Of a stretch of DNA of 32,000 nucleotides, positions 7,123-27,585 are shown in pieces. The DNA is from Candidatus Saccharimonadota bacterium. Its GTDB lineage: Bacteria > Patescibacteriota > Gracilibacteria > UBA1369 > 2-02-FULL-48-14. Each line of letters opens with the position of its first letter. Within the stretch, counting starts at the first letter, position 1. The DNA lies in assembly GCA_965230905.1 (NCBI GenBank), contig OZ246396.1, forward strand, positions 660,001 to 692,000, given 5' to 3'. The translations under genes were made by a program, and so were the position numbers. The notes under the pieces are model-generated. The model saw only the letters and a list, made by a program, of their open reading frames with translations, was not told the origin of the DNA and did not search any database.

Positions 7123-7158
7123 AAAATCTGTTAAATGTGAGTTAAAAAAAGCTTTGGC

Positions 7159-7186
7159 ATTATAAGGAAGCCAAGAGAGAAGTCAA
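7159..7186 (-). promoter_or_regulatory. sigma70-like promoter for fusA
   Basis: The minus strand reads TTGACT-N16-TATAAT, near consensus. The -10 ends 36 nt upstream of the fusA ATG. Confidence 0.6.
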
Positions 7187-7214
7187 CGGCAAGCCTTTTA
7201 CGCAATGATCGCGA

Positions 7215-7589
7215 CTACTTTTTCGCGAAGTAGTTTACGTTTGGTAGATCTTTGAAATCAGCATCTTGAGTCCAGAGAGTGGCACCATAGAGGAGGGCAG
7301 TGGCATAGATGATGGAGTCGGCCATACCCAAGCTTTCTCCTAGACTTATTTTGCTCCCTAGTACTGCTGTCCATTCATCAAGTTCAAGAACTTTTCCCAA
7401 CTGCATTTGTTCCATTGCTGTTACTGCTGCTGTTTGTCCGCGTTCTTTCATTACTTTTTTGAACACTTCATAAATGTTTATTGTAGGTACAAGCAAGTTA
7501 TCAATATCTTCAATTGCTTCCGAAAAAAGGTCAGCTCGCTCTGTGTCAGCGAAGTATTCGAGCCAACCTGAAGAATCCACTATATTCAT
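7215..7589 (-). CDS. vapC: type II toxin, PIN-domain ribonuclease VapC
   Basis: 124 aa. The N-terminus MNIVDSSGWLEYF carries the first PIN acidic residue, with later conserved acidic positions (E in INIYEV, D in TQDADF). There is a 4-bp ATGA overlap with the upstream antitoxin gene. Confidence 0.85.
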   Translation of the reverse strand: MNIVDSSGWLEYFADTERADLFSEAIEDIDNLLVPTINIYEVFKKVMKERGQTAAVTAMEQMQLGKVLELDEWTAVLGSKISLGESLGMADSIIYATALLYGATLWTQDADFKDLPNVNYFAKK

Positions 7590-7804
7590 AATTCTCGGTC
7601 TGGTTCACGGACTATGGTGGGATCCATCCCCTTGAGAAACCCTCTTAATTCCCGAATATTTTTTACTTTTACTGGGAATAGTTTGATGGAACCGTCCATT
7701 TCAATAGTAGTGGCGAATTTAGTTCCAGGCTTCCATCGCAAGAGGGTGCGCAATTCTTTTGGGATGACTATTTGATATTTTGGCGAGAGAGTCATGATAT
7801 TCAT
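7586..7804 (-). CDS. vapB: type II antitoxin, AbrB/MazE/SpoVT-fold VapB
   Basis: 72 aa. KYQIVIPKELRTLLRWKPGTKF is a typical SpoVT/AbrB swapped-hairpin motif. It is translationally coupled to vapC. Confidence 0.8.
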   Translation of the reverse strand: MNIMTLSPKYQIVIPKELRTLLRWKPGTKFATTIEMDGSIKLFPVKVKNIRELRGFLKGMDPTIVREPDREL

Positions 7805-7836
7805 ACGTTTTTGTGATCGATCGAATAAACGTAAAA

Positions 7837-7865
7837 ATTATAGGCTAAAAAGCGAAATAAAGCAA
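7837..7865 (-). promoter_or_regulatory. sigma70-like promoter for vapBC
   Basis: The minus strand reads TTGCTT-N17-TATAAT, 32 nt upstream of the vapB ATG. Confidence 0.5.
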
Positions 7866-7879
7866 GTGCACACAAGGCC

Positions 7880-10800: not shown

Positions 10801-11923
10801 TGTGGAAAAAGCTTCCACTTGCACCCCGCGTCCATGCTTTTGAAGCGGTGAGTGTCCCCGAAGTGGCGGTGAAGCTGCCTCCTGTCAGGCTCACAATTCC
10901 AGTGAAGCCCAGACTGCTGCTGCCTCCATTAAAAACTCCTGAATTGAGTGTGAAGGTTCCTGCGAAGGTTTTGCTGCCGCTGCCTGCGGTGTAGGTTCCG
11001 CCGGAAAGAGTGACGACCCCGGAATGACTTACGTTGTAGCCGTCCATATTTAAAGTTCCGGACGTGAGCGTGAGGGCTGCAAATTCAATGGTCCCTGAGC
11101 CCGTTCCACTCAGCGTGCTGCCTGTTCCATTTAGGGTAATGGTCTGTGTAAGGTTGGAGGCAAGTTCACCTGGAATGGTGATGGTCTCGTTAGTACTCGT
11201 AATATTAAAAAGTCCGGTTCCGTTTCCGTCCCATGCGGAGGCAATATTTACGGCTCCTTTGGATTGAATGGTGCCTGTGGCCCAGCGACCTTCACTAAGG
11301 TTGAGGGCGCCGTTCACTACCACAGTGTCTCCGCTACTCACGGTTAAAATGACTCCATTGTTTTTATTGATTCGGAAATTGTAAAAATTCACCGCTGTTT
11401 TGCCTGGCAGATTCATGGTCGAGGTGCCTCCATCGAGCTCAACGCTTCCGTTGTTGTGTACAAAGGTTCCAGCTGAGTTGGCCCAGCCGGCGGATACAAA
11501 CAGAGTGCCGGACGTGGATGTGAAGCTGCCACCGGAAAGGGTATAAGTTCCGTTGATGTCTATGTTTGCCGTGTCGCCCAAAAAGGTTCCGGCGGCTTGA
11601 GCATAATTTCCGTTTATAGTGAGCGAACGGGATTGGGTGATTGTGCCGGTGTAGCCGGTGGAAATGGTGAGGCCCGTAACGGTGCCAACGGCGCTGCTGT
11701 CCAGCGTGGCGCTTTTTGTTGAAGTGGTGTTGAAGGTTACGCTGTCGCTCGCAGTGGGGCAGGCATTGCTGGACCAGTTCGCGCAGGTGGACCATTTTGC
11801 GTCTGAGCCACCACCGTCCCAAGTGCGTGAAGCTGCATTGGCAGTGCTTGCTTGTGCCATGCACAAAAGTGCGCCAAGCCCGAGTATAAAGCCGAATAAA
11901 AATGTGTGGTGGAGGATTTTCAT
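7880..11923 (-). CDS. large secreted cell-surface protein: beta-helix-like repeats, Asp-box, FN3-like domain, C-terminal SLH anchors (S-layer/adhesin-like)
   Basis: 1347 aa with the signal peptide MKILHHTFLFGFILGLGALLCMAQASTANA. About 850 aa are Gly/Thr/Ser/Asn-rich beta-strand repeats. It also has the Asp-box YSTDGGDTW, an FN3-like segment (PPSAVTNF...ILTWLPASDSNFKHYEIW) and a Thr/Ser-rich linker. Two clear SLH-like repeats follow (FTDVPP..YIDYAYQQGLINGYPDRTFRP and FNDVDLNEWYAPYLLHAYSKGVIKGYEDGSFKP, DNA about 7883..8278). Confidence 0.85.
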   Translation of the reverse strand: MKILHHTFLFGFILGLGALLCMAQASTANAASRTWDGGGSDAKWSTCANWSSNACPTASDSVTFNTTSTKSATLDSSAVGTVTGLTISTGYTGTITQSRSLTINGNYAQAAGTFLGDTANIDINGTYTLSGGSFTSTSGTLFVSAGWANSAGTFVHNNGSVELDGGTSTMNLPGKTAVNFYNFRINKNNGVILTVSSGDTVVVNGALNLSEGRWATGTIQSKGAVNIASAWDGNGTGLFNITSTNETITIPGELASNLTQTITLNGTGSTLSGTGSGTIEFAALTLTSGTLNMDGYNVSHSGVVTLSGGTYTAGSGSKTFAGTFTLNSGVFNGGSSSLGFTGIVSLTGGSFTATSGTLTASKAWTRGASGSFFHNNGTVEFNGAGATIDVPNTESFYKLRINSTGTKTIGALDAWTIFSDLTIINGLLSGSTASIQLNGNLTLGADADAMNVPLTLSGTGTQMLSTAVNNIDGDLTINKLGGSVELSQALVLNASSQDLKIQNGSFALNGNNLSVNGSSGTLIVQSTGILELNGNETLTANTNYPSLQAGSTVLYEGTAGPYTLKNYSYQNLIISSDSNSLFNLPASKTIAGNLTILSGIFSQNGFNLSVTGTFSNEGTLRRLGAETFTGLMDTSSGTVEYSGDGDLLTESFTITDFGAGTDYFDLKINDQNSAKDSFALSAILNIENSLTIESGEFKQNAFSIHASALTLNGGTFTGGNANVVITGDLTLNSGTLSAPTANLSIYEDWNRSGGTFSHNNGTVSFASSTPSVISGDNHFNHLNSINPGKFLAFTAGSTQTVSGQLNLTGSLENPLLLQSSESGMPWYLISTGSQNVSYVDVSDSNASGGNPIQQVSSLNSGNNVHWVFNVAPVLSELTAQQSTDGTGLASISFVVEDTDQDAVETQIEYSTDGGDTWASPTLAGQTNFSTTSGPSSALLNWNARLDLPADAAHAQIRITPNDGTESGVTIVSDEFVLDFLPPSAVTNFNHMDFSDNHIILTWLPASDSNFKHYEIWHGEGEASAEMNSLTGESWGPANDAALSLASTNTVRIDGRDPRWKYFKIFTIDDFGNITSSPLLFIAASFTQNHGNNTSSNSTVETPSSTEISLNTSTETESTVTTTPTPEQASINLESFWKNFAYPLPVHWSSGYLKHLQLEQKVANTATSAPTLLSILVEIFVSPNGAINRGESLEFLMSLSSYEVSDVTLSDETQSIFTDVPPTYERSAYIDYAYQQGLINGYPDRTFRPTQTISRAEALKIVARFFNETVDTNLQDEELLSLYDLDENPFNDVDLNEWYAPYLLHAYSKGVIKGYEDGSFKPDSAVSYAEFLKISLLSQNPDVVIAEE

Positions 11924-12068
11924 TTTGGAAAAGAATCATAGGTTTTTTTCTTTTGATAAACAAAGAAAGCCACTTGCTAGGTACCTTTATTCAAGGTCTT
12001 CTAAATGATTTTTGCTCTCGAGAAAAACGGGTTTGGGAAAGAGTCCGTCAATAGTGGACAATATGTTC

Positions 12069-12596
12069 TTATTCTACTTCTGTGCTCACGTAGCTTTCCA
12101 AGGTATCGACCAAGTCATTGTTGGCCTCAATGAAGGTGGTGTAGTTGATGTGCATGGTTTCATCCAGGCTCTCCACTTGGCTGATGTCTTCCTTGTAAGT
12201 GCCTTCGCTGTAGTAGCTGAGCATGGCGGCGTAGCTTTCCAAATAAAGTTCAGCGGCCGTGCGGTAGGTTTCCACTTCGGTGCGAACGGCGTTTTGTTGC
12301 TCCAAATTGCGGGCTTCCAAAGTCAGGAGCTCGGCGGTTTTTTCCAACGCGCTCACGGCGTCGTCGTAGCTGCTTTCCATGGCAGCGGTATCAATAAGGT
12401 CTTCTTCGGTCACTACATCGGGCAGCGTTTCATTGTAAAGACTGGTGGTGTTTTCAATGGCGAGGGATGTGGCGTTCACTTCTTCAACCACCAGATTGTT
12501 GTATTCCACTTCACTGTATTTACCAAGCAGGTTGCAGCCGGAAAGAACAAAGGCGCTGACAAGCAGAAAGGCGGAAAGAGATTTTTTCATAAACAT
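12069..12596 (-). CDS. lipoprotein, function unknown
   Basis: 175 aa. MFMKKSLSAFLLVSAFVLSGC carries a lipobox (L-S-G-C). The mature part is acidic and predicted helical. The antisense ORF 12012..12638 is judged a shadow. Confidence 0.7.
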   Translation of the reverse strand: MFMKKSLSAFLLVSAFVLSGCNLLGKYSEVEYNNLVVEEVNATSLAIENTTSLYNETLPDVVTEEDLIDTAAMESSYDDAVSALEKTAELLTLEARNLEQQNAVRTEVETYRTAAELYLESYAAMLSYYSEGTYKEDISQVESLDETMHINYTTFIEANNDLVDTLESYVSTEVE

Positions 12597-12654
12597 GGGT
12601 TTTGGCGTGTCCTGATTTTAGCAGGACTCACTGAATAGGGCTACAAGAGCAAGA

Positions 12655-12683
12655 TTGACGAAATGCCGTAATTGTATTAGAAT
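12655..12683 (+). promoter_or_regulatory. sigma70-like promoter for ORF 12702..13712
   Basis: TTGACG-N17-TAGAAT. The -10 ends 18 nt upstream of the ATG. Confidence 0.5.
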
Positions 12684-12701
12684 AGCTTTTCAATAAAGCT
12701 T

Positions 12702-13712
12702 ATGGGAAATTTTTCCAACCGTATTAAATTAGCCTCAAAGATTTGGCCGATTTTAGCTGAACGTGATCTGCCTCATAATCTGGAGGGCAGGGGTGCCATA
12801 CCCGGATTGGGGCTTTTGCTTCAAGAAGCAGTGAGCTTTGAAGAAATCATAAAGCTTACCTTGTTGGAAGATACACAAACCGATTTTGGCAGAGCGATTT
12901 CTCCAGCTGAAGCTGCCACTTTGCTCTTTTCCAGCAGTGGGTGGACTCGTACGCGGAAATTGACCATTGGTTTTTGGGACGCGGCTTGGGCAGCTTTGAA
13001 GGCAAACCCGAACGATCAAGTTCACGTTCTTTATATTGGTACGGGGCCGTACGCCAGCTTGGCTTTGCCAGTGGCGGCCGCTTTCCCTCAAGAAAAGCTC
13101 GTAGTGCATGCCGTGGATATTCATCAAGAGTCTTTGGATATGCTCGATCGCGTGCTTCGCCACTTTGATTTAGAGGAAACTTTTCCAACGCGCCTCTGTG
13201 CGGATGCCACTCAAGTTGATTGGCATAAACACCTCACCGTGAAGCCGAAGATTGTGCTGGTGGAATGTATGGATCGTGCGCTTTTACGGGAGCCTCAGGC
13301 AAAGATTGTGGAAAATTTGAATCAACAGTATGGCTCAGATTTTTTGCTTGTCCCCGGGCGTGTGATGGTGAATGTATATCTCTATGGAGAGGACGGACGA
13401 ATCATGGAGAACTTCCCATTTTTCTTTCTTGATAGCTCAGGAGTGGTGGGTCGTGGGGCTGATTACAGCGGGTCTGAACACACTATTTCCAAAGAGTTTT
13501 CTTGGGAGGATTTAGAGCAAGGTGCCACGGAACGAGTTCATTTTAGTTTGGAAACCATCGTTAGGGTGGGGCCAGAAAATATTCTTTCTGATGATGAAAA
13601 TGCTATCACCCGTGAAGTGTATTTGCCGGCACTTCCCTCAGGTACTAAAAAGGCCCGCATTTCCTATAGACTGGGATGCGAGCCTAGAGATGTTCGGGTA
13701 GAAGCACTCTAG
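12702..13712 (+). CDS. class I SAM-dependent methyltransferase, PRMT-like (protein arginine methyltransferase-like motif set)
   Basis: 336 aa. Motif I-like VLYIGTGPYASLAL, post-I VVHAVDIH, motif II plus a double-E-loop-like KIVLVECMDRALLRE (E-x-M-x5-L-x-E spacing as in SEWMGYxLLxE), then LLVPGRVMV (motif III-like). No THW loop recognised. Confidence 0.45.
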   Translation: MGNFSNRIKLASKIWPILAERDLPHNLEGRGAIPGLGLLLQEAVSFEEIIKLTLLEDTQTDFGRAISPAEAATLLFSSSGWTRTRKLTIGFWDAAWAALKANPNDQVHVLYIGTGPYASLALPVAAAFPQEKLVVHAVDIHQESLDMLDRVLRHFDLEETFPTRLCADATQVDWHKHLTVKPKIVLVECMDRALLREPQAKIVENLNQQYGSDFLLVPGRVMVNVYLYGEDGRIMENFPFFFLDSSGVVGRGADYSGSEHTISKEFSWEDLEQGATERVHFSLETIVRVGPENILSDDENAITREVYLPALPSGTKKARISYRLGCEPRDVRVEAL

Positions 13713-13715
13713 CTA

Positions 13716-14183
13716 TCACTTCTTCTTAGTGAAGCGAGCGTAGTGAGCGAAAGCTCGGTTCGCTTGTGCCATACGTTCCACGTCGTCTTTCTTCTTTACT
13801 GCTCCGCCGTTTCCGTCGGAAGCTTCAAGGATTTCGAGAGTGAGACGTTTGAACATAGGCATTCCTTTTCGTTTGCGAGCTCCGTCGATGAGCCATCGGA
13901 ATGAAAGCATTCGTTGTCGTTTTGGGTTCACTTCAAATGGCACTTGGTACACCGCTCCTCCGATACGTTTTGGACGTACTTCCATGGCAGGTTTAGTGTT
14001 TTCAATGGCACGGAAGAAAAGTTCACGAGGTTCTTTGTGTCCACGCTTTTCGATTTCACCGAGCATGTCGTTGAAAATGGTTCGAGCAATGGTCTTCTTT
14101 CCACCTTCCATGATGTAGTTGATGAACTTCTCAGAAGTTTCATCAGACAGAGGAGGTACGTAGGTAGTGATCTTAGTCTTCAT
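13716..14183 (-). CDS. rpsG: 30S ribosomal protein S7
   Basis: 155 aa with the typical S7 sequence (RAIENTKPAMEVRPKRIGGAVYQVPFEV). It starts 3 nt after the rpsL stop. Confidence 0.97.
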   Translation of the reverse strand: MKTKITTYVPPLSDETSEKFINYIMEGGKKTIARTIFNDMLGEIEKRGHKEPRELFFRAIENTKPAMEVRPKRIGGAVYQVPFEVNPKRQRMLSFRWLIDGARKRKGMPMFKRLTLEILEASDGNGGAVKKKDDVERMAQANRAFAHYARFTKKK

Positions 14184-14186
14184 GAT

Positions 14187-14600
14187 TTACTTTTTAGGTT
14201 TCTTAGCTCCATAACGGCTTCGGCTTTGCCGGCGGTTTTGAACCCCTTGGCAATCCAAAGATCCACGGATGATGTGGTAACGAACTCCGGGGAGGTCTTT
14301 AACACGTCCTCCACGAACCATAACAATGGAGTGTTCTTGTAAGTTGTGTCCTTCTCCTCCGATATAAGCATTCACTTCCATTCCATTGGTAAGTCTCACA
14401 CGCGCAATTTTTCGAAGAGCTGAGTTAGGCTTCTTAGGAGTCATGGTCGTCACCTTGGTGCATACTCCGCGTTTAGCGGGGCAAGCTAGGGGACGGTTCT
14501 GAGAACGAAGCGTATTGAAAATAGTCTGAAGCGCAGGAGCTTTACTCTTTTTCTTTACAGCCTTACGAGGCTTGCGGATGAGCTGGTTGATGGTTGGCAT
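14187..14600 (-). CDS. rpsL: 30S ribosomal protein S12
   Basis: 137 aa with [11 protein letters not shown] at the N-terminus, [16 protein letters not shown] and [13 protein letters not shown]. Confidence 0.98.
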
Positions 14601-14628
14601 TTAGATTGAAAACTATAAAAGCTGAGAG

Positions 14629-14657
14629 AGTTTAGTGCGTTTTAAGGCCTAATGCAA
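14629..14657 (-). promoter_or_regulatory. sigma70-like promoter for rpsL-rpsG
   Basis: The minus strand reads TTGCAT-N17-TAAACT, 28 nt upstream of the rpsL ATG. It sits immediately after the stop of ORF 14664..15581. Confidence 0.5.
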
Positions 14658-14663
14658 GGGAAT

Positions 14664-15581
14664 TTAGGGCTGATCTATGCTAAGCACTGGGCGCAACTCT
14701 GTTTCAGCCTCAATATGCTTCGTGCTGCCCCAGGGCGTCCTCACTAAATTTACATCTGGATTGTGAGCGTAGCTGTCCTCTTGAAAGTGGCCATTTGTTA
14801 CCTGATTTGGGTTCGGCAAGTCGAATGGTCCACAAGACACGGTGATGTAATAAGGATCCATTTTTTCAGTTAGGGTGGGAGTTTCAGCGCGGTCCAATTC
14901 CGCCAAATTCCAGAGGCAGGCTGAGGGACTTTGGAACTGTAGAGTTAAAATTTCGCCTCCAACTGCGTTCATACAAGCCTCCGTAGCCTCTTTATCTTCG
15001 TGCGGAGCCATGAGCACCAGGCGATCTTCAGGTGCAGCGCTGGAGTCATAGAAGGTGCTGGTGAAACTTAAAGTACCATCTTGATGCACCAAGGTTTCGG
15101 TATTGATTTTTTCCTGTTCTAGAAAGGAATTGGACTCGCTGAGGTAAATATTCTGGCAGTCACCTAGTATACCACCCACCACCCAAGTCAGCATGTTTTG
15201 AGAATATTCTTTATTTAAGCGATCAAGTTCTCTGTCGGCGCTTTTTGAGAGAGTTAATTTAGGATAAGCACAAACGGCAGCACCTGTTTCAGGGGCTATG
15301 CTATGAGGACGCGTCACCGCTCCCATATATATAAAAGCGGCCAAGCCTATAGTGGCGTGGAAGCTAGTTTGAATGACAGCGCGGGGGAGGACGACACTTT
15401 TTACAAACTCACCTCCATTGTGAGTATGGCGGGTTCCTTCAGTTTCCTCGATGAATTCCAAAAGAGGATTCAACCTTACGTAAACCGCTTGGTGGATTAT
15501 GCGAGCAGCAAAGGCACTGACAATACCCTTTGCAAGGGGATGGATTTCAGGTGTTTTTTGGGTTCGTTCAGGCTTGTTCAC
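14664..15581 (-). CDS. hypothetical protein
   Basis: 305-aa ORF with a GTG start; the next in-frame ATG is not until about codon 86. No signal peptide or recognisable motif. Confidence 0.55.
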   Translation of the reverse strand: MNKPERTQKTPEIHPLAKGIVSAFAARIIHQAVYVRLNPLLEFIEETEGTRHTHNGGEFVKSVVLPRAVIQTSFHATIGLAAFIYMGAVTRPHSIAPETGAAVCAYPKLTLSKSADRELDRLNKEYSQNMLTWVVGGILGDCQNIYLSESNSFLEQEKINTETLVHQDGTLSFTSTFYDSSAAPEDRLVLMAPHEDKEATEACMNAVGGEILTLQFQSPSACLWNLAELDRAETPTLTEKMDPYYITVSCGPFDLPNPNQVTNGHFQEDSYAHNPDVNLVRTPWGSTKHIEAETELRPVLSIDQP

Positions 15582-15587
15582 GCGTAT

Positions 15588-15616
15588 ATTTAAACACTAT
15601 TTTCTTTATACGTCAA
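15588..15616 (-). promoter_or_regulatory. sigma70-like promoter, predicts a leaderless mRNA for ORF 14664..15581
   Basis: The minus strand reads TTGACG-N17-TTAAAT. Only 6 nt (ATACGC) separate the -10 from the GTG start. Confidence 0.4.
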
Positions 15617-15657
15617 TTACCAGGCGGAAAAGCTTATACAGAAAGACCCTTACGCAG

Positions 15658-16008
15658 TTAAAGCAAAATCGCTGACTTAGAGTTGAGGCTCAGCAGGGTT
15701 TTTAAAAGCAAGTCTACTTCTTGAGCGAGTTTTTTAAGATCGCCTTTATTTAACAGATATAGCGAAGCCAGTAAATCTCTCCAGCGGAGCAGCTCAAAGC
15801 GAAGGTTTCCTTTCTGACAGCAAATAGTGAGGTCGGTGAGTTCCAGTGCGCGTTCTATGGTGAGCTTAAGAGTTTCTTCGTCTTGATCTGCTGCGAGGCT
15901 GCTGAGGAGGCGGTTTATCTCATTCCCGATCATGAAAATTTGCTTCTCAGTAGGGAAGCTAGACCAACGTTCGGGGGTTAGACTGGGGTGATGCTTGAGT
16001 GCGTACAT
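15658..16008 (-). CDS. hypothetical helical protein, partner of the DUF5674-like gene
   Basis: 116-aa ORF whose ATG lies 1 nt after the stop of the upstream ORF, so the two are tightly coupled. The composition is Leu/Glu-rich and helical. No motif recognised. Confidence 0.55.
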   Translation of the reverse strand: MYALKHHPSLTPERWSSFPTEKQIFMIGNEINRLLSSLAADQDEETLKLTIERALELTDLTICCQKGNLRFELLRWRDLLASLYLLNKGDLKKLAQEVDLLLKTLLSLNSKSAILL

Positions 16009-16009
16009 T

Positions 16010-16345
16010 TTACTGGATTAGTTTCTCTACAAGTACTTGAATCTGTTTTTGAATGTGTGGATCTTCAACGGACATGCTTTTATTTCCTTGAACGGGGCGA
16101 ATGTTGATGAGCGAAGTAAGTTCAAGCAACTTTGGTGGGCTAAAGTAAATATTCGCACCCCATAGGTTTTCTTGCTTGCTGTCGTGCGACTCTAAAAGAA
16201 GCTCTTCGAGGTCTGCATGAAGTTCGGCGTCGAGTGCGATTATTTCTTGCTCAAGGTCCACGACAATCTTCACCATCTTTTCAAAAAAATGATTGTGATT
16301 TTCTTGGATTTCTTTGAGAGAAAGAGGAGTTTTTATGATGAGCAT
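16010..16345 (-). CDS. DUF5674-like protein
   Basis: MVKIVVDLEQEIIALDAELHADLEELLLESHDSKQENLWGANIYF...LINIRPVQGNKSMSVEDPHIQKQI matches my recollection of the DUF5674 family pattern (KaVvD...HaD...L...GS.QedlWG.N...iNiRP.qgN.s..VeD). The start is placed at the ATG at 16345 (MLIIK). The ORF track begins at a GTG at 16378 that lies inside the upstream palindrome. Confidence 0.6.
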   Translation of the reverse strand: MLIIKTPLSLKEIQENHNHFFEKMVKIVVDLEQEIIALDAELHADLEELLLESHDSKQENLWGANIYFSPPKLLELTSLINIRPVQGNKSMSVEDPHIQKQIQVLVEKLIQ

Positions 16346-16351
16346 GTGGAG

Positions 16352-16380
16352 AGTGTAGCAAGTTTTGTGCACGTGCACAA
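16352..16380 (-). promoter_or_regulatory. promoter of the DUF5674-like operon, predicts a leaderless mRNA
   Basis: The minus strand reads TTGTGC-N17-TACACT, then 6 nt (CTCCAC), then the ATG at 16345. The -35 and spacer are embedded in the 20-bp palindrome. Confidence 0.4.
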
Positions 16381-16382
16381 AA
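16363..16382. promoter_or_regulatory. perfect 20-bp palindrome, putative operator
   Basis: TTTTGTGCACGTGCACAAAA is identical to its reverse complement. It overlaps the -35 and spacer of the DUF5674-like operon promoter. A 14/15-nt copy lies at 25792..25806. Confidence 0.55.
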
Positions 16383-16431
16383 TCGAATCAGTACTTGGCT
16401 CCTTGGTTTGTCAATGTTTGCAGCTTGGGTT

Positions 16432-16447
16432 CTTGCCGCGCGGCAAG
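16432..16447. promoter_or_regulatory. perfect 16-bp GC-rich palindrome in the divergent control region
   Basis: CTTGCCGCGCGGCAAG is identical to its reverse complement. No U-tract follows on either side, so it looks more like a protein-binding site or RNA hairpin than a terminator. Confidence 0.35.
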
Positions 16448-16464
16448 AAAAGCCGCTAGTTGTT

Positions 16465-16493
16465 TTGCGTCAGCAGCTTCTTTGTGTTTTAAT
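16465..16493 (+). promoter_or_regulatory. candidate promoter for ORF 16513..17148
   Basis: TTGCGT-N17-TTTAAT, or TAATAT at N19. It lies about 20 nt upstream of the ATG at 16513. Confidence 0.35.
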
Positions 16494-16512
16494 ATTGGCT
16501 TCTAAGTTAAAT

Positions 16513-17148
16513 ATGGCGATTGAATTTGGCGGTATCGAGTTTGAAGAAGAGGGGAGTTTTTTGCGGCCGAAAGATAAGAAGGTGCAGGTGGAGCGGACCT
16601 GGCTTGACAGTCCAGATTTAAATTCGAGACGTTTGGGTGAACGCATCGTGCTAGCTCCTATTGATAAAGAGGGAAGCTGGGCGGCACGGAAGTCTGATCA
16701 GGTGTGGCCTAATTCGGCGGTTTTTTGGCATCAGGATCGTCTGGGGTGCACGGTTTTGGCGGTAGCGAATATTGCCAATGGCAATCAACGAGGGAATTCT
16801 CGGTGGGTTTCTTCAAGAAACGCCTTGGTGGACTTAGCGGTCATGCCACAGCATAGACCTCGCGTGGCCGAGTTTTTGAACCTCGACCAAAAGAAATTAT
16901 TTGATTTAAATAATGAAGAGTTTATTGCGCATCGAACTCGATTGAATGAATGTATAAGGGCGATTTTGCTAAGTGATGGTGCTCCAGCGGATTTTTCTAA
17001 CGGAGTACTGGAGGTGAATTGGGCGGAAAATCCTTATACCGTTGCCATTTTAAATAATCTAGCTGGTTTCCATGCGGGTACAGCCAAGGGAGTTTTTGGC
17101 GCATTGGCATCCAATGATTTGCATCGGCATATGAAGATTGCTTGCTAG
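16513..17148 (+). CDS. hypothetical protein
   Basis: The ORF is open from 16408. I place the start at the ATG at 16513 (MAIEFGG...), because the upstream 35 codons cover the divergent promoter and palindrome region. That gives 211 aa with no recognisable motif. Confidence 0.55.
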   Translation: MAIEFGGIEFEEEGSFLRPKDKKVQVERTWLDSPDLNSRRLGERIVLAPIDKEGSWAARKSDQVWPNSAVFWHQDRLGCTVLAVANIANGNQRGNSRWVSSRNALVDLAVMPQHRPRVAEFLNLDQKKLFDLNNEEFIAHRTRLNECIRAILLSDGAPADFSNGVLEVNWAENPYTVAILNNLAGFHAGTAKGVFGALASNDLHRHMKIAC

Positions 17149-17160
17149 GCTAAAGCAAAA

Positions 17161-17182
17161 AGCCCCACCTTGCGGCAGGGCT
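17161..17182. terminator. bidirectional rho-independent terminator (rpoC and ORF 16513..17148)
   Basis: On the minus strand: GCCCTGCC-GCAA-GGTGGGGC, an 8-bp stem including two G.U pairs, followed by TTTTT. On the plus strand: the same hairpin with a 2x2 internal loop, followed by T7. It lies 43 nt after the rpoC stop. Confidence 0.7.
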
Positions 17183-17225
17183 TTTTTTGAATGTCCTTTT
17201 GATAGGCTCGACTTCGTCGAGTGGA

Positions 17226-20200
17226 CTAATCCTCGCGGGTGTCGATTTCCTCTCCGCGGAATTGTTTGCGGAAGGTTTCTCCGGCAGGGATCAAACGTCC
17301 GATGATCACGTTTTCCTTGAGACCGGCGAGCAGATCCACTCGGTGAGTGGTTGCAGCCTCCACGAGTACGCGGATGGTTTCTTGGAAGGAAGCGGCTGAG
17401 AGCCAGCTTTCCGTGTGCAGAGCGATACGAGTGAGTCCGAGGAGCAGTCGTTCGTATTCGATGACTGGCTTCTTTTTCTTTTCGAATTCGTTGTTTTCTT
17501 CCACCATCGTTTGGTAGTCCACGATTTCCCCTGGGAGGAAGTCGCTGGCTCCAGATTCCGCCACGCGGATCTTGGAGAACATCTGACGAGTGATGATTTC
17601 GATGTGCTTGTCGTTGATGGTTTGTCCTTGAGACGCGTAGATGCTTTGTACTTCAGACATGATGTACTTTTGCGTGGTGTAGATGTCCGTGAGCTTCATC
17701 AGCTTGCGGAGATTGAGGTGTCCTCCAGTGAGCGGAGTTCCCTTGGCCACGAGGTCGCCGTTCTTAACTTTAACGGTTTTACCAGAATCCACTTTGTATA
17801 CGGACTCAACCACATCTGGCTGAATAACGATTTCCTTTTTGCCGGCTTTCACTACCACTCCATCGAGCGTAGCGCGGAGTTTCTTTCCTCCTTTTTCAGC
17901 GAGCACATCTTTGATGTTGATCTTGTCGTCCTTCTTCACAACCACCTCGAATCCTTCTGGTACTTCGAAGGTTTCTTCGGGTACATCGGTTGGGGTGATG
18001 GTGATGACGGTTTGGTTGGCCTTGTTGCTCACGTTCACCTTTCCATCGATTTCCGCCAAGAGGGCAGGCTTCTTTGGAGTGCGGGCTTCGAAGAGTTCTT
18101 CCACACGAGTCAAACCTTGCGTGATATCGTCTTCGTCGGCGATTCCTCCCATGTGGAAGGTACGCATGGTGAGCTGAGTTCCAGGTTCTCCAATGGACTG
18201 AGCTGCAATGATTCCCACTGCGGTTCCCAGGTCCACGGTCTTGTTGGTTCCAAGGTCACGTCCGTAACACTTTTGGCAAACCCCGTTGAGGGTGAGACAA
18301 GTCATCACAGAACGTACACGGATGGTGGGCAGTTGATCTTCTTTAATGAGTTTGAGAGCAGCCTTGTCGATTTCGGTTCCGGCAGCGATCATCACTTTGC
18401 CTTTCTTATCGAGTACGTCTTCTCCAACCGTGCGTCCGAAGATTCGGTTTTCAAAGGCTTCTCCAATCTTTTCAGATTCTTCACGAGTCACCAAGTGAGT
18501 GCGGTCGGTTCCACAGTCTTCTGCCTTAATAACGATGTCCTGTACCGCGTCCACCAGACGTCGGGTGAGGTATCCGGCTTCAGCCGTCTTAAGCGCGGTG
18601 TCGGATTTACCTTTTCGTCCTCCGTGCGTCGCAATAAAGTATTCCAAGATCGTGAACCCTTCCATCAAGTTGGACTTGATTGGCAATTCAATGGTCTTAC
18701 CGGCGGGATTCGCCACGAGACCTTTCATTCCACATAGCTGAGTGATTTGTCCCCAGTTACCACGAGCTCCAGAATCTACTTGGTAGAAAATGTCGTTTTC
18801 AACATCGAAGCTTTCGATCATCTTTTTGGAGATGTCGTTCTTGGTCGTTCCCCAAACCTTAATGGCTTGGTTGTAACGTTCATCTTCCGTGATGAATCCG
18901 GTTTCAAAGTACTCTTGGATTTGAGCCACAATCTTTTCAGACTTCTTCATGATTTCTGCTTTCTCCTTAGGGATGTGCAGATCGGCTCCAGCAATGGAGA
19001 TTCCGGACTTGGTTGCGTACTTGAACCCGAGTTCCTTGAGGTCGTCACAAAGCTTAGCGGTCACTTCGATTCCATATTTTTCGAATACAAGCGCCACGAT
19101 TTCCGCGATTTCCTTTTTCTTCAAGGTGTGGTTTTGGTAACCCATTCCTTCTGGAACCACGGTGTTGTAAATGGCACGTCCAATGGTGGTCTCGATGATT
19201 TCACCACGCAGACGAATCTTAACCTTGGCTTGCAAATGAACTTCCTTGAAATCCATAGCAATGATGGCTTCTTCCAAGTTTCCAAACACTTTTCCTTCTC
19301 CCTTCTTGTTCTTCTGTTGAACCGTGAGGTAGTAGAGACCAAGCACCATGTCCTGAGTAGGAACGGTGATAGGTTCTCCGGCAGAAGGCTTCAAAAGGTT
19401 ACGAGCGGAACACATGAGTTCGCGGGCTTCTTCTTGAGCTTTGTTGGAAAGGGGAACGTGTACGGCCATCTGATCTCCGTCGAAGTCGGCGTTGAACGCA
19501 GAACATACGAGAGGGTGAACTTGAATAGCCTTACCTTCGATGAGTACAGGTCGGAACGCTTGGATACCCAGACGGTGCAGGGTAGGTGCACGGTTGAGGA
19601 GCACGTAGCGTCCTTTGGTCACGTCTTCCAAGATGTCCCAAATAGCTTTGTCGCTTCCTTGGATCATCTTTTCAGCGCTCTTGATGTTGTGAGCGTACCC
19701 ATCGTTGATGAGTTTTCCAATCACGAAAGGCTTGAAGAGTTCAAGCGCCATGATTTTTGGAAGTCCACATTCGTCGAGTTTGAGGTTTGGTCCAATAACG
19801 ATTACAGAACGTCCGGAGTAATCCACACGTTTACCGAGCAAGTTCTGTCGGAAACGTCCTTGTTTACCCTTGAGCATGTCAGACAGGGAACGGAGCTTGC
19901 GCTTGTCACCTGAGTTGAACACGGTCTTTCCTTGACGAGCTGAGTTATTGATCAAAGTGTCCACGGCTTCTTGAAGCATACGTTTTTCATTTCGGCAGAT
20001 TACCTCTGGTGCTCCAATCGCAATCAAACGTTTGAGACGGTTGTTACGGTTGATCACACGTCGGTAAAGGTCGTTCAAGTCGGAAGCGGCGTAACGCCCT
20101 CCATCGAGCTGAACCATCGGACGAAGATCTGGTGGAATAACAGGCAGAACGGTCATGATCATCCATTCTGATTTGATACCTGCTTTTACAAGAGATCCGA

Positions 20201-21041
20201 TGAGCTTGATGCGCTTCATGATCTTGGTTTTCTTTTGTCCGCTGGCCTTTTCCATTTCGACTTCCATGTCTTTGATCTCTTTGTCCATGTCCATGTTTCC
20301 AATAATCTTGTGCAGAGATTCCGCACCGGTACCGGCCTTGAACACGTGTCCGAATTTCATGGACATGTCTCGGTATTCAAGCTCGGTGAGCACCTTGCTG
20401 TTCTCCAGAGATTCCAAGTCCATGCGGGCTTGTTCCATTTGTTCGTTCAATTCTTCAACCTTGTTTGCTTGTTCTTTTTCAATATCCTTAGGGCTGGTTC
20501 CACCGGCACGAAGACGTTCTTCGTATTCACGGATCAAATCCTTTTTGTAGCTTTGGAACTCGTCGTCCAGCTGAGCAATCGCGGCTTCCTTAGCCTTTTC
20601 ATCCACTTCCGTGATGATGTAAGCGGCAAAGTACACGATTTGTTCGAGCGTCTTCACGGGCAAGTTGAGGAGCAAACCGATACGGCTTGGAGTTGAGCGC
20701 AGGAACCAAATATGAGTCACCGGCACCGCGAGGGTGATGTGTCCCATACGGCTTCGGCGAACGATAGAGCGGGTAACTTCCACTCCACATTTTTCACAAA
20801 TAACTCCCTTGTAACGAATGCGTTTGTATTTTCCACAGGCACATTCCCAGTTCTTCGTAGGACCGAAAATGCGTTCGCAGAAAAGTCCATCACGTTCCGG
20901 CTTTTGAGTTCGGTAGTTGATGGTCTCCGGCTTTTTCACTTCTCCATGAGACCAGGAAAGGATCTGTTCAGGGGAAGCAACGGAGATTGCAATCGCGTCA
21001 AAGAGCACAGGGGCTTTCTTTGAATCTTGATTGTTCATCAT
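17226..21041 (-). CDS. rpoC: DNA-directed RNA polymerase subunit beta-prime
   Basis: 1271 aa with the catalytic NADFDGDQM motif and the N-terminal zinc motif CACGKYKRIRYKGVICEKCGVEV. The start ATG overlaps the stop of the upstream antiporter gene (ATGA). Confidence 0.98.
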   Translation of the reverse strand: MMNNQDSKKAPVLFDAIAISVASPEQILSWSHGEVKKPETINYRTQKPERDGLFCERIFGPTKNWECACGKYKRIRYKGVICEKCGVEVTRSIVRRSRMGHITLAVPVTHIWFLRSTPSRIGLLLNLPVKTLEQIVYFAAYIITEVDEKAKEAAIAQLDDEFQSYKKDLIREYEERLRAGGTSPKDIEKEQANKVEELNEQMEQARMDLESLENSKVLTELEYRDMSMKFGHVFKAGTGAESLHKIIGNMDMDKEIKDMEVEMEKASGQKKTKIMKRIKLIGSLVKAGIKSEWMIMTVLPVIPPDLRPMVQLDGGRYAASDLNDLYRRVINRNNRLKRLIAIGAPEVICRNEKRMLQEAVDTLINNSARQGKTVFNSGDKRKLRSLSDMLKGKQGRFRQNLLGKRVDYSGRSVIVIGPNLKLDECGLPKIMALELFKPFVIGKLINDGYAHNIKSAEKMIQGSDKAIWDILEDVTKGRYVLLNRAPTLHRLGIQAFRPVLIEGKAIQVHPLVCSAFNADFDGDQMAVHVPLSNKAQEEARELMCSARNLLKPSAGEPITVPTQDMVLGLYYLTVQQKNKKGEGKVFGNLEEAIIAMDFKEVHLQAKVKIRLRGEIIETTIGRAIYNTVVPEGMGYQNHTLKKKEIAEIVALVFEKYGIEVTAKLCDDLKELGFKYATKSGISIAGADLHIPKEKAEIMKKSEKIVAQIQEYFETGFITEDERYNQAIKVWGTTKNDISKKMIESFDVENDIFYQVDSGARGNWGQITQLCGMKGLVANPAGKTIELPIKSNLMEGFTILEYFIATHGGRKGKSDTALKTAEAGYLTRRLVDAVQDIVIKAEDCGTDRTHLVTREESEKIGEAFENRIFGRTVGEDVLDKKGKVMIAAGTEIDKAALKLIKEDQLPTIRVRSVMTCLTLNGVCQKCYGRDLGTNKTVDLGTAVGIIAAQSIGEPGTQLTMRTFHMGGIADEDDITQGLTRVEELFEARTPKKPALLAEIDGKVNVSNKANQTVITITPTDVPEETFEVPEGFEVVVKKDDKINIKDVLAEKGGKKLRATLDGVVVKAGKKEIVIQPDVVESVYKVDSGKTVKVKNGDLVAKGTPLTGGHLNLRKLMKLTDIYTTQKYIMSEVQSIYASQGQTINDKHIEIITRQMFSKIRVAESGASDFLPGEIVDYQTMVEENNEFEKKKKPVIEYERLLLGLTRIALHTESWLSAASFQETIRVLVEAATTHRVDLLAGLKENVIIGRLIPAGETFRKQFRGEEIDTRED

Positions 21042-21988
21042 GAGAATAAAGGATTAATAAATTGAAGTAAGAATACGAGGTAGAGCAGAATCATGAGTGC
21101 CCCCTCGTAAGCGGACCACTTTTTTTGAAGTGTAGAAAAAGTAAACAAAATGAGAGCAATGAGCAGAAAGGGCAGGGCCAAGTTGAGCGTATCACCGGTT
21201 ACATTCAGCGTTCCGAAGAAAGAAGGAATGGCCATGACGAGGGTTGCGTTTAGCACCGTGGAAGCCACGAGCAAACTCACCACTGCGTCTCCATTTCCCC
21301 GTTTTGCGGCCCGGTGTGCGAGCAGCATTTCTGGGGCAGACACTCCGAGCGCAACCACGCTGCCACCCAGCACGCTGGGAAGCCAGTTTTGCATTTCGGA
21401 AATCTCAATCACTCCGGTTACCGTGAAGTAGGCTCCGGCCACTAACGCAGCTGCACTCAGCAGAAGGGTCAGGGCAAGGGGAGCGCTCCAAGCTTCCATA
21501 TTGAAAAGTTGGCTGATACGGTCCATGAGGCCTTGTTTGTGGTCTTCACGGCGAGCTGCCAAAAAGACGCCAAGCGCAAGGAGCAGGACACCGCCTTCGA
21601 TTGCCGTGAGGCTTCCGTCGGCGGAAAGAACAACGAGCAAGAACAAAGTACCGAGCAGTAAAGGCACTTGCCGAATGGTGCTCTCTTTCTGCACGCTTAA
21701 CGTTCGTGTGGTCAGTGCGCAGATTCCCATGATCAACAATAAGTTGACCAGGTTTGCGCCCCACACGTAAGCGGGGACAAAAGAGGAGTACCCTTTAGCG
21801 GAAGCTACTGTGGAAATCACCAGTTCAGGCAAGCTGACGCCCAGAGCCATGAGCACCACGCCCCAAAAGAAGGGAGAGAGCTTGCTGGCCCGCGCGCCTT
21901 CCTCTGCCTTGGCAGCAAAGACCTGGGAGGCCGCTGCTGCCACTGCGAGGGAGCTTACGAGGATGAGAGTCCAGAGTAAAATTTGCAT
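21038..21988 (-). CDS. CaCA-superfamily cation/Ca2+ antiporter (YrbG-like Na+/Ca2+ exchanger family)
   Basis: 316 aa and about 10 predicted TM helices. Two internally repeated alpha-repeat signatures, ALGVSLPELVIST...GANLVNLLL and ALGVSAPEMLLAH, correspond to the G(T/S)SxPE motifs. It starts 28 nt after the rpoB stop. Confidence 0.75.
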   Translation of the reverse strand: MQILLWTLILVSSLAVAAAASQVFAAKAEEGARASKLSPFFWGVVLMALGVSLPELVISTVASAKGYSSFVPAYVWGANLVNLLLIMGICALTTRTLSVQKESTIRQVPLLLGTLFLLVVLSADGSLTAIEGGVLLLALGVFLAARREDHKQGLMDRISQLFNMEAWSAPLALTLLLSAAALVAGAYFTVTGVIEISEMQNWLPSVLGGSVVALGVSAPEMLLAHRAAKRGNGDAVVSLLVASTVLNATLVMAIPSFFGTLNVTGDTLNLALPFLLIALILFTFSTLQKKWSAYEGALMILLYLVFLLQFINPLFS

Positions 21989-22016
21989 TTAAAGTGAATT
22001 AAGGGAGAGGGCAGGA

Positions 22017-25565
<3,549 letters not shown>

Positions 25566-25689
25566 GGGGCTGAGTCGGATTAAGGATGTAAAAAAACGAA
25601 ACTAGACGGATTCCGCTAGGGGAACCCGACTATCGTGCTTTGCTCTCTTGCGCAACTAAATCTGTAATTCGAGAGCGATGTCGACTGCT

Positions 25690-25717
25690 ATTTTATTTAT
25701 AAATGACCAATTGTCAA
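25690..25717 (-). promoter_or_regulatory. sigma70-like promoter for the rpoB operon
   Basis: The minus strand reads TTGACA-N16-TAAAAT. It predicts a 5' leader of roughly 115-120 nt before the rpoB ATG. Confidence 0.5.
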
Positions 25718-25821: not shown

Positions 25822-25830
25822 TTGCCAATT

Positions 25831-27585
25831 ATGAAACAAAGCACCAAGCTCACTTTACGATTTTATGCAAAATATGTGCGCCGGCACTGGGTTTTGGCTT
25901 TGGTGGGCCTGATTGGCGCAATTGGGGGAGCGGCCGGTACGATGATTTTGCCCTTCTTTTTTAAGGATTTTGCAGATGCGCTTACAGCGGGCGAGACGGA
26001 AAAACTGGTGCCCATTCTTATAAGCATGACCGTGGTGTCTTTGGTGGAGTTCGCCTTTTGGCGGACTTCGTTTTATGCGATGGCTTCTTTTGAGGCCACG
26101 GGGATGAAGGAAATTGCGGATGATTGCTTTGAATATTTGCATAAACATTCCTTTAACTTTTTTAGCAATCAATTCGTGGGTTCGCTGGTGAAGCGGGCGA
26201 ACCGAATGGCGCGCAGCTTTGAAGATATTATGGATCGTCTTTATTACGACTTCACGACTTTGGCGGTGCGCATAAGCATTGCGATTGTGGTTTTCTTCTC
26301 CATCGATATGACCTTGGGTTTGATTGTTTTTGCTTGGGTGGTGATTTTTATGGGACTGCACTTGAAGATCGGAAATTATAAGATGGCTCGTTACGACGTG
26401 CCTAAGTCGTTGGCTGACACACGAGTGACCGGCGCGCTGGCGGACACGGTGACCAACAACAGCACTATTAAATTGTTTGCGCGGCTGCCTTTTGAAAAAG
26501 TGGAGTTTGGGAAGGTGACTAAGGATTGGTCTTCCAAAGTCAGGGCTTCTTGGTTCTTCAGTAATCACGTGGAAAGTGTGCAAGTTTTATTTATGGTGGG
26601 GCTGAATTCTTTGGTGCTTTATATCGCGATTGGTATGTGGGAAGAGGGTACTCTTTCGGTTGGATATTTTATTTTATTTCAAACGTATTTTATTGAACTC
26701 TTTTCGCAACTGTGGAGCTTTGAACGTGTGCTTCGGCATTTTTATGAGAACCTCGCAGATGCCGAGGAAATGACGGAAATTTTGAACATGCCTTTTGAAG
26801 TGGTGGATGTGCGCGGTGCCAAAAAACTGCTGGCAAAAAAAGGCGAAGTGAAGTTTGAAAATGTTTCGTTTTCCTACACGGATGATGAAGAAAGCAGTGT
26901 GGTTAAAAATTTGTCTTTCGTGGTGGAGGCAGGGGAGCGCGTGGCTTTGATTGGACCTTCGGGCGGAGGAAAAACGACCATCGTAAAATTGCTGCTGCGT
27001 TTGTTCGATGTGGATAAAGGGCAGATTTTAATCGATGGTCAGGACAGTTCCAAAGTGACGCAGGACAGTTTGCGTGCGAATATTGCACTGGTGCCGCAGG
27101 ATCCGATTTTGTTCCACCGAACGCTCATGGAAAACATTCGTTATGGAAAATTGGATGCCACGGACAGCGAAGTTTTTCGCGCTGCAAAATTGGCGCACTG
27201 CCACGAATTTATTTCTAAATTTCCAAGTGGCTACAAAACTTTGGTGGGGGAACGTGGCGTGAAACTTTCCGGCGGAGAGCGTCAACGCGTGGCGATTGCC
27301 CGTGCCATTTTAGCCGACACAAAGATTTTAATTTTGGATGAGGCGACGAGCAGTTTGGACAGCGAATCCGAAAAACTTATTAAGGACGCGATGCGCGTTT
27401 TGATGAAAGGAAAAACAGTGTTCATTATTGCGCACCGGCTTTCTACTATTGTGGATATGGATCGCATAATTGTGCTCGAAAAAGGTCGTATTGTGGAAGA
27501 AGGCGGTCACAAAGATTTACTTAAAAAGAAAGGCGGGCTTTACAAGCGCCTTTGGGATTTGCAAGTGGGTGGTTATTTGGAGTGA
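25831..27585 (+). CDS. ABC transporter, fused permease/ATPase (type I exporter, MsbA-like)
   Basis: N-terminal six-helix TMD. The NBD carries Walker A GPSGGGKTT, Q-loop VPQDP, signature LSGGERQRVAIARA, Walker B ILILDEATS and H-loop IIAHRLS. The ATG at 25831 (MKQSTKL) is preferred over the TTG at 25822 used by the ORF track. Confidence 0.9.
   Translation: MKQSTKLTLRFYAKYVRRHWVLALVGLIGAIGGAAGTMILPFFFKDFADALTAGETEKLVPILISMTVVSLVEFAFWRTSFYAMASFEATGMKEIADDCFEYLHKHSFNFFSNQFVGSLVKRANRMARSFEDIMDRLYYDFTTLAVRISIAIVVFFSIDMTLGLIVFAWVVIFMGLHLKIGNYKMARYDVPKSLADTRVTGALADTVTNNSTIKLFARLPFEKVEFGKVTKDWSSKVRASWFFSNHVESVQVLFMVGLNSLVLYIAIGMWEEGTLSVGYFILFQTYFIELFSQLWSFERVLRHFYENLADAEEMTEILNMPFEVVDVRGAKKLLAKKGEVKFENVSFSYTDDEESSVVKNLSFVVEAGERVALIGPSGGGKTTIVKLLLRLFDVDKGQILIDGQDSSKVTQDSLRANIALVPQDPILFHRTLMENIRYGKLDATDSEVFRAAKLAHCHEFISKFPSGYKTLVGERGVKLSGGERQRVAIARAILADTKILILDEATSSLDSESEKLIKDAMRVLMKGKTVFIIAHRLSTIVDMDRIIVLEKGRIVEEGGHKDLLKKKGGLYKRLWDLQVGGYLE

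Follow-up and report, generated by a model that had tools for sequence, protein, structure and literature searches.

The 32,000-nucleotide (nt) stretch of DNA analyzed in this study (hereafter, the window) corresponds to positions 660,001 to 692,000 of contig OZ246396.1 in the metagenome-assembled genome (MAG) GCA_965230905.1, deposited as Candidatus Saccharimonadota bacterium, and it contains a gene for a CaCA-superfamily exchanger between rpoB and rpoC. An earlier note on this DNA had described the gene as a 316-amino-acid (aa) reading frame that begins 28 nt after rpoB and overlaps the start of rpoC in the tetranucleotide ATGA. We confirmed the coordinates, lengths, and junctions of these open reading frames (ORFs), and the description of the locus was accurate except for the strand, as rpoB, the exchanger gene, and rpoC are all encoded on the minus strand. 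In window coordinates, which are used throughout, rpoB (22017..25565) encodes the RNA polymerase beta subunit of 1182 aa, ends with a TAG codon, and contains six Pfam Rpb2 domains with a TIGR02013 score of 1560 bits. rpoC (17226..21041) encodes the beta' subunit of 1271 aa, also ends with TAG, and contains five Pfam Rpb1 domains with a TIGR02386 score of 1586 bits. The exchanger is encoded between them by a 951-nt cistron (21038..21988) and matches PF01699. A pyrimidine-rich and AT-rich spacer of 28 nt (21989..22016, minus strand) leads from the rpoB TAG to the ATG of the CaCA gene, and no hairpin, T-run, or Shine-Dalgarno motif was found within it. On the other side, the TGA stop codon of the CaCA gene and the ATG of rpoC share 4 nt (ATGA, 21038..21041, minus strand), and a second in-frame ATG of rpoC directly follows the first (ATGATG, at 21036..21038).

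We checked both junctions for misassembly, as the earlier note had advised. Two independent, single-run Logan assemblies (L104 and L105) were 100% identical to window positions 20911..22431 and spanned both junctions, and a third sample (L103) contained a 97% identical strain with collinear genes. The exact CaCA protein is also on record from further samples, and ENA, JGI, NCBI, and Logan, as four data sources, together yielded more than 15 orthologous loci with this gene order. The locus is not misassembled, because the independent assemblies match across both junctions. The alternative of an assembly chimera or a mis-binned contig is virtually excluded: we found nothing in its favor other than the generic concern that applies to MAGs, the window is part of a contig of 1,307,106 bp, and two independent assemblies agree with it over 1.46-1.52 kb.

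The genetic code also had to be considered. Related Gracilibacteria recode UGA, which would erase the stop codon of the CaCA gene. There was no in-frame TGA in eight conserved genes of the window genome (4,739 codons, with 372 GGN glycine codons), and both rpsG and the ABC transporter gene stop at TGA with lengths as expected. UGA is a genuine stop codon in this genome, and recoding was ruled out. We also ruled out a programmed frameshift that would fuse the exchanger to beta', as the last 48 nt contain no slippery heptamer of the type X XXY YYZ and, read in the frame of rpoC, a TAA stop codon is encountered 15 nt before the ATG.

We surveyed the rpoB-rpoC interval in relatives, another check suggested by the earlier note. 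The CaCA gene is kept at this site in more than 15 loci, and deeper relatives carry ssb there. Close relatives are labelled Candidatus Peribacteria, with one labelled Gracilibacteria. A word-index protein search missed orthologs below ~50% identity, and these were recovered via rpoC homologs and their contigs. CaCA orthologs with 54-90% identity all reside in an rpoB-CaCA-rpoC arrangement with a 4-nt overlap. The same gene order was present in all sampled loci with an rpoC identity of 73-98%, and the more diverged loci with rpoC identities of 86, 83, 77, 77, 75, and 74% all have it (loci L001-L008, L011-L014, L016-L019, and L022-L024). Two loci from Peregrinibacteria contain ssb (PF00436) between rpoB and rpoC, one with the order rpoB-ssb-CaCA-rpoC (L021, 67% rpoC identity, ssb at L021:4260-4829) and the other with rpoB-ssb-rpoC (L020, 68% rpoC identity, ssb at L020:5427-5933); no ssb was found in the window. 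The rpoB/rpoC junction is a recurrent landing or retention site in the phylum.

The identity of the CaCA orthologs to the window protein drops along with the rpoC identity (90, 79, 76, 55, 48, 44, 39, 36, and 32%). The CaCA gene diverged as rpoC did and was therefore inherited vertically and in place, and the comparison indicates that it has occupied the rpoB/rpoC site since before the Peribacteria diversified. As a baseline, we inspected 80 metagenome loci with CaCA relatives of 24-40% identity. Three of these, the three best and all from Peribacteria, were flanked by rpoB and rpoC, while the other 77 had neither gene within 5 kb. The earlier note had called the gene 'wedged' into the operon. 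Its position between rpoB and rpoC stands; a local or recent insertion does not, because the arrangement is ancient, vertically inherited, and clade-wide. Recent horizontal insertion was ruled out, given a GC content within the bias typical of membrane-protein genes and a CaCA divergence that tracks that of rpoC.

The assignment to the CaCA superfamily was supported by several lines of evidence. The proposed profile search with PF01699 (Na_Ca_ex) matched both halves of the protein (E-value of 9.8e-42, 142.9 bits against a cutoff of 24.9, best stretch residues 172-310), and a profile built from the syntenic proteins matched NCX_Mj over its full length (E-value of 1e-36). An AlphaFold (AF2) model (m27719b7ccf1f), computed from 36 sequences, had a predicted local distance difference test score (pLDDT) of 85.7 and a predicted template-modeling score (pTM) of 0.85, and it contained 10 transmembrane (TM) helices and two Na_Ca_ex repeats, with TM1 beginning at residue 2. 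Foldseek returned NCX_Mj, VCX1 (TM-score 0.81), CAX_Af, YfkE, CAX1, and NCLX as best matches with a probability of 1.00. With two repeats above the gathering score, a fold of 10 TM helices, and a glutamate in each alpha-repeat, the protein is a member of the superfamily. The model was closer to VCX1 and other CAX H+/Ca2+ exchangers (TM-scores of 0.76-0.82) than to the structures of NCX_Mj (0.61-0.64), and it may represent a different, possibly inward-facing conformation.

The predicted ion site departs from that of NCX_Mj. The alpha-1 signature is GVSLPE (residues 50-55; 21824..21841, minus strand) and the alpha-2 signature is GVSAPE (residues 215-220; 21329..21346, minus strand); V51 and V216 take the places of T50 and T209 in NCX_Mj, and E55 and E220 correspond to E54 and E213. 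NCX_Mj has twelve ion ligands (A47, T50, S51, E54, S77, N81, A206, T209, S210, E213, S236, and D240), eight of which are identical in the window protein, and the four changes (T50V, S77A, T209V, and D240N) leave it without the full NCX-type set. Asparagine is present at the D240 position in every bacterial homolog sampled. In NCX_Mj, T50 and T209 form the Na+ sites with their side chains and coordinate Ca2+ through their backbone carbonyls, S77 provides a hydroxyl ligand, and the T209A and S77A substitutions reduce kcat/Km to 10-25% of the wild-type value (PMC4753433). With 125.5 bits against a cutoff of 179.65, the window protein also stays below the TIGR00367 model for YrbG-type exchangers.

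The valines in both signatures, pointed out in the earlier note, are present, and homolog counts mark them as derived and rare. The alpha-1 position is occupied by threonine or serine in all 25 homologs outside the clade, in 79 of the 80 metagenome relatives, and in 147 of 149 library representatives, and the alpha-2 position is threonine in 80/80 metagenome relatives. Threonine or serine at both positions was seen in 25/25 homologs from outside the clade and in 144 of the 149 best representatives of a library of 1.84 billion proteins. The sole case with valine at both positions among these 149 best representatives is an ortholog from the same clade.

Syntenic exchangers could be divided into two types. 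T-type exchangers (L018, L019, L021, L022, and L024, with L023 overlapping the genome region of L018) have GTSLPE in both repeats and GSN...N in TM3 and TM8. V-type exchangers, which include the window protein and those of all overlap-type loci, have GV[S/A]LPE in the first and G[V/F/L]SxPE in the second repeat, with valine, phenylalanine, or leucine at the alpha-2 position throughout the sub-clade, and in most members Ser77 in TM3 is replaced by alanine. T-type orthologs passed the TIGR00367 cutoff with 200-213 bits, whereas V-type ones failed with 74-125 bits. We then related the CaCA distances to those of rpoC. The ratio was 3.4-7.1 (median 4.9) for the V-type and 0.9-2.3 (median 2.0) for the T-type, with disjoint ranges, and V-type exchangers evolve about 2.5 times faster than T-type exchangers. 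They do so under purifying selection, with ratios of nonsynonymous to synonymous substitution rates (dN/dS) of 0.09-0.19 for V-type pairs with unsaturated dS. E55 and E220 are unchanged in all syntenic orthologs, and within the V-type, at identities of 44-100%, there is no variation in P54, P219, E55, E220, S243, and N247, and the length is fixed at 315-316 aa. The overlap, the ligand losses, and the increase in rate all map to the same sub-clade. One exchanger of 315 aa, P0160, has TVSSLPE in alpha-1, GTALPE in alpha-2, the tail QFLNPSL, and a TIGR00367 score of 155.6 bits. By these features it looks intermediate between the T-type and the V-type, which hints that the tail change preceded the ligand losses.

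From these data we infer that the V-type is a functional but derived exchanger, which probably retains the binding of Ca2+ or another divalent cation and differs in its counter-ion coupling or has a lower turnover. Alternatively, the V-type exchanger may no longer transport anything and its ORF may be kept as a translated bridge for rpoC initiation. The loss of three canonical ion ligands, the low TIGR00367 scores, the faster evolution relative to rpoC than in the canonical orthologs, and the 10-25% of kcat/Km that T209A and S77A leave in NCX_Mj (PMC4753433) would all fit such a bridge. We consider it unlikely, as a mere bridge ORF would not keep the ion-site glutamates, and the invariant prolines, S243, and N247, the fixed length, the low dN/dS, and the confident AF2 model with a CaCA fold all speak against it.

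We next consider how the three genes might be transcribed. A consensus scan identified a sigma70-like promoter ~125 nt upstream of the rpoB ATG (25690..25717, minus strand; TTGACA-16-TAAAAT, 11/12 matches), and TTGAC-type -35 and TAnAAT -10 boxes are present at the same place in L002, L005, L017, L018, L019, L020, and L021. The promoter is followed by the 5' leader of rpoB (25566..25689, minus strand) with a conserved hairpin of 6 bp, formed by stems at 25671..25676 and 25642..25647, and an invariant loop motif, GATTGnGTTG. Alignment and consensus folding of six loci supported the hairpin GCTCTC...GAGAGC with six pairs and one compensatory change, and hairpin and loop are common to Peribacteria loci down to 74% rpoC identity. 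Rfam contained no family that matched at the gathering threshold anywhere in the window, including the leader, which may be an undescribed rpoB leader or attenuator. The scan detected no sigma70-like promoter and no minus-strand terminator within 21000..22050, in line with the earlier note, which had seen neither signal in the gap after rpoB.

Across Peribacteria, the rpoB-CaCA junction varies between an overlap of 4 nt and a gap of 39 nt and the CaCA-rpoC junction between an overlap of 4 nt and a gap of 17 nt, with the exception of 100 nt in L019. In some T-type loci it is the rpoB stop codon and the ATG of the CaCA gene that overlap by 4 nt (L022:5001-5004, L019:4905-4908), and therefore tight or overlapping junctions arose independently on both sides of the exchanger gene. 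Two T-type loci have unusual sequences ahead of rpoC, a GC-rich tandem repeat (gcatgccctatgcc)n in L021 (L021:5878-6000) and a hairpin-forming sequence in L019 (L019:5901-6000). These spacers may be inserted repeat elements or regulatory structures.

Downstream of rpoC, the next gene call is convergent (~16513..17148, plus strand), making rpoC the last gene of the unit. Hence, the genes have the properties of a single unit: they are on the same strand, have short or overlapping junctions, lack a detectable signal in the internal scan, and keep their order in more than 15 loci. Co-transcription, which the earlier note had taken to be implied, is the economical interpretation because the junctions are short, the rpoB promoter is conserved, internal signals were not found, and the gene after rpoC is convergent. 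On this basis we strongly infer that rpoB, the CaCA gene, and rpoC are co-transcribed from the rpoB promoter.

The translation signals of the region provided a further clue. Of the window's 24 ORFs, none is preceded by a Shine-Dalgarno motif at the usual distance, and AT-rich sequences are found ahead of their starts; TAG is the stop codon of 14 of these ORFs, TAA of 7, and TGA of 3. When 50-nt windows of the region were compared, those at the starts of the CaCA gene and rpoC ranked with the least structured, with a GC content of 0.24 at the rpoC start. We measured synonymous-codon identity, i.e., the fraction of same-residue pairs that use the same codon, in seven overlap-type orthologs. It was 0.43 gene-wide (0.29-0.56 in 10-codon bins) and rose to 0.69 at codons 303-312 and 0.83 at codons 313-316. 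The last 14 codons of the CaCA gene (21042..21082, minus strand), with synonymous constraint, low GC content, and weak predicted structure, thus constitute a putative embedded rpoC initiation region.

Comparison with the T-type loci revealed how the overlap arose. In the canonical T-type locus L022, CTT TAA ends the CaCA gene, and the 12 nt of spacer that separate it from the rpoC ATG read TCCTTTTATTTC. In the window, the TAA homologous to this stop codon is out of frame, and the 16 nt that comprise the former stop and the 12-nt spacer (TTAATCCTTTATTCTC, 21042..21057, minus strand) are identical to L022 at 14/16 positions. A conserved glutamine codon (CAA) is 23 nt away from the rpoC ATG in loci of the window type as compared with 33 nt in L022 and L018. 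Distance and sequence match therefore indicate that a deletion of 10 nt near the 3' end of the CaCA gene shifted the frame, put the TAA out of frame, and created the ATGA overlap, which is unchanged in 9/9 V-type loci. The conserved NPLFS tail of the exchanger is the old stop and spacer, read through up to the TGA of ATGA, and the ancestral CaCA-rpoC state was a spacer of 12-17 nt. The strong constraint at the 3' end of the CaCA gene is present because the tail is the former rpoC initiation region.

These results shed new light on the overlap, which the earlier note had read as a sign of translational coupling. It does not speak for a special adaptation for coupling: it is a by-product of the 10-nt deletion, and the sequence of the spacer has been preserved. 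With its initiation region intact, rpoC may still be translated by ribosomes that start de novo, in addition to those that terminate and re-initiate; termination-reinitiation is plausible in both the ancestral and the derived state, given a distance of 0-17 nt between the stop and start codons. The overlap of stop and start together with an rpoC gene that lacks a Shine-Dalgarno motif is the geometry of coupled genes, but it discriminates weakly since no ORF in the window has such a motif, and genes of this compact genome often overlap or are separated by small gaps. Coupling of rpoC translation to that of the CaCA gene is plausible from this arrangement.

The pattern of constraint also bears on whether a separate promoter for rpoC is located in the 3' portion of the CaCA gene, in which case the units would be independent and the overlap would have no effect on expression. 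The last ~40 nt of the CaCA gene are AT-rich and constrained at the nucleotide level and in principle could be a promoter, and the spacers of 100-123 nt before rpoC in L019 and L021 could hold one. However, no minus-strand sigma70-like match was found within the CaCA gene, although the rpoB promoter of the clade matches at 11/12 positions. Codons 263-302, the zone where -35 and -10 boxes would be expected for a leader of normal length, are at the baseline of synonymous constraint (0.39-0.47), and this is evidence against a conserved promoter at a more upstream position within the gene. The 16 nt under constraint correspond by homology to the stop codon and 12-nt spacer of the T-type, a segment too short to accommodate a promoter. 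Independent units are thus improbable, to about the same degree as the bridge ORF.

Overall, our data are best explained by an inherited three-gene rpoB-CaCA-rpoC transcription unit in Candidatus Peribacteria, and we assign this explanation as a whole a probability of about 0.72. The conserved sigma70-type promoter and leader upstream of rpoB would drive the whole unit, and the cistrons would start from short, AU-rich, weakly structured regions without Shine-Dalgarno motifs. In the sub-clade of the window, the 10-nt deletion moved the TAA of the exchanger gene out of frame and extended the ORF through the 12-nt spacer, while the old spacer would still be the rpoC initiation region, hence the constraint at the nucleotide level. 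Ribosomes that finish the exchanger would terminate on the rpoC start, and there they could re-initiate or hold the region unfolded for new ribosomes. The exchanger would still be working and be kept by purifying selection, with invariant glutamates and prolines in the alpha-repeats and without the three hydroxyl ligands of the NCX_Mj Na+ sites (T50V, T209V/F/L, and S77A).

Several points weigh against this explanation. Co-transcription and coupling are deduced from geometry and conservation, and the scan used a consensus of the E. coli type, which a weak or atypical internal promoter could escape. Tight linkage is not universal, as the CaCA-rpoC spacer has 100-123 nt in L019 and L021 and is structured or repetitive. 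Cells need beta and beta' in equal amounts and presumably far less of a transporter, a poor fit with strict 1:1 coupling; this mismatch in dose favors some independent initiation at rpoC as well. As for the exchanger, its accelerated evolution and missing canonical ligands could instead mean a partial loss of function. Finally, the outgroup consists of two loci (L020 and L021), on which the order of ssb and CaCA gain and loss depends.

Membrane tethering of the rpoBC mRNA (transertion) is a further possibility that the earlier note had raised. Transcripts of E. coli are enriched at the membrane when they are polycistronic with genes for inner membrane proteins (PMC4874777), and an extrapolation from this finding to the window is reasonable. 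A more far-reaching proposal is that the position of the CaCA gene is adaptive, with the membrane cistron tethering the rpoBC transcript and, via coupled transcription, the locus, and being selected for polymerase assembly or mRNA turnover. The retention of the arrangement across a deep divergence, with rpoC identity down to 67%, the membrane enrichment of mixed-operon mRNAs in E. coli, and a TM1 that starts at residue 2 and would allow early membrane targeting are consistent with this proposal. Yet neutral lock-in explains the long retention equally well, as excising a gene from within an essential operon is risky. Moreover, L020 lost the CaCA gene and kept only ssb at the site, the inserted genes (ssb and CaCA) share no membrane theme, and localization should matter little in cells this small. 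We therefore regard selection for tethering as quite unlikely, slightly more so than the bridge ORF or an independent rpoC unit. The same low expectation applies to the strongest version of the coupled operon, in which beta' synthesis would depend on the ribosomes translating the exchanger, transporter output would be tied to the polymerase level, the ligand losses and the sustained rate increase in this very sub-clade would reflect selection to tame an over-produced transporter, and mRNA and locus would be obligatorily tethered. If true, this would be a natural case of an essential cytoplasmic machine expressed through a membrane-protein cistron.

How does the locus compare with known systems? 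As in the classical rplKAJL-rpoBC cluster, rpoB and rpoC of the window are co-directional and appear to form one unit with a promoter upstream of rpoB, and rpsL, rpsG, fusA, and tuf follow further downstream on the same strand. Unlike in the classical cluster, the 951-nt membrane-protein cistron parts rpoB from rpoC, and there is no rplJ or rplL upstream of rpoB in the window; their place is taken by the operon's own promoter and leader, together with an ABC transporter gene in divergent orientation (25822..27585, plus strand). The neighborhood of the str genes (5035..17225) is loosened as well, with several small genes, one of them encoding a DUF5674 protein, and one gene on the opposite strand between rpoC and rpsL, and with ~6.6 kb between rpsG and fusA that include genes for a 1347-aa SLH-domain protein (7880..11923) and a PIN-domain protein (7215..7589). 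In relatives such as L005, rpsL lies 81 nt after rpoC. Published rearrangements of the secE-rpoBC-str cluster concern insertions between operons, for example of tusDCB between rpoBC and str (PMC8046335). Our literature searches did not turn up any description of a gene that separates rpoB from rpoC, and nothing relevant was contained in the genome paper on Peribacteria.

The fused rpoB-rpoC genes of Helicobacter and Wolbachia (NF007172 and NF011417) are likewise a lineage-specific change of the junction on what would be one transcript. In the window, however, the junction is widened by a foreign cistron rather than abolished, beta and beta' are separate and of full length, and the proteins score far below the cutoffs of both fusion models. 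The exchanger shares the 10 TM helices and two inverted repeats of the YrbG/NCX_Mj branch (TIGR00367; PDB 3V5U and 5HXH) and keeps the alpha-repeat glutamates and prolines, S52/S217, N82, S243, and A48/A213. It differs from NCX_Mj by T50V, T209V, and S77A, which remove three hydroxyl groups, and by asparagine at D240, and in contrast to YrbG members and the syntenic T-type orthologs it misses the TIGR00367 cutoff. Like ATGA-coupled gene pairs, the CaCA-rpoC pair has a 4-nt overlap, no downstream Shine-Dalgarno motif, and a predicted initiation region inside the upstream ORF; unlike the usual pairs, it joins an integral membrane protein with an essential and abundant cytoplasmic subunit, and its overlap is the by-product of a 10-nt deletion, the ancestral state having had a spacer of 12-17 nt. 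As in the mixed operons of E. coli (PMC4874777), a cytoplasmic cistron would be polycistronic with an inner-membrane cistron, except that the cytoplasmic partners here are core subunits of RNA polymerase. The arrangement is apparently undescribed, although operon, transporter family, and type of overlap are each known and only their combination is new.

The adjacency of rpoB and rpoC is treated as near-invariant and anchors studies of gene order and operon evolution, and we describe here a well-supported, lineage-wide exception. Peribacteria, which are ultra-small groundwater bacteria, carry a membrane gene in the core polymerase operon, down to an rpoC identity of ~67%. The rpoB/rpoC junction is not untouchable and, once occupied, tends to stay occupied. 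The locus also offers a traceable birth of a stop/start overlap, in which an out-of-frame deletion turned an intergenic initiation region into coding sequence. For annotation, V-type exchangers fall below the TIGR00367 cutoff, and the one in the window is labelled 'hypothetical protein' in the source MAG. A functional link between the transporter and RNA polymerase is a candidate only. The unit may serve as a natural test case for two questions: how cells adjust the output of an abundant cytoplasmic enzyme and of a membrane transporter from a single mRNA, and whether the membrane attracts an mRNA of this kind.

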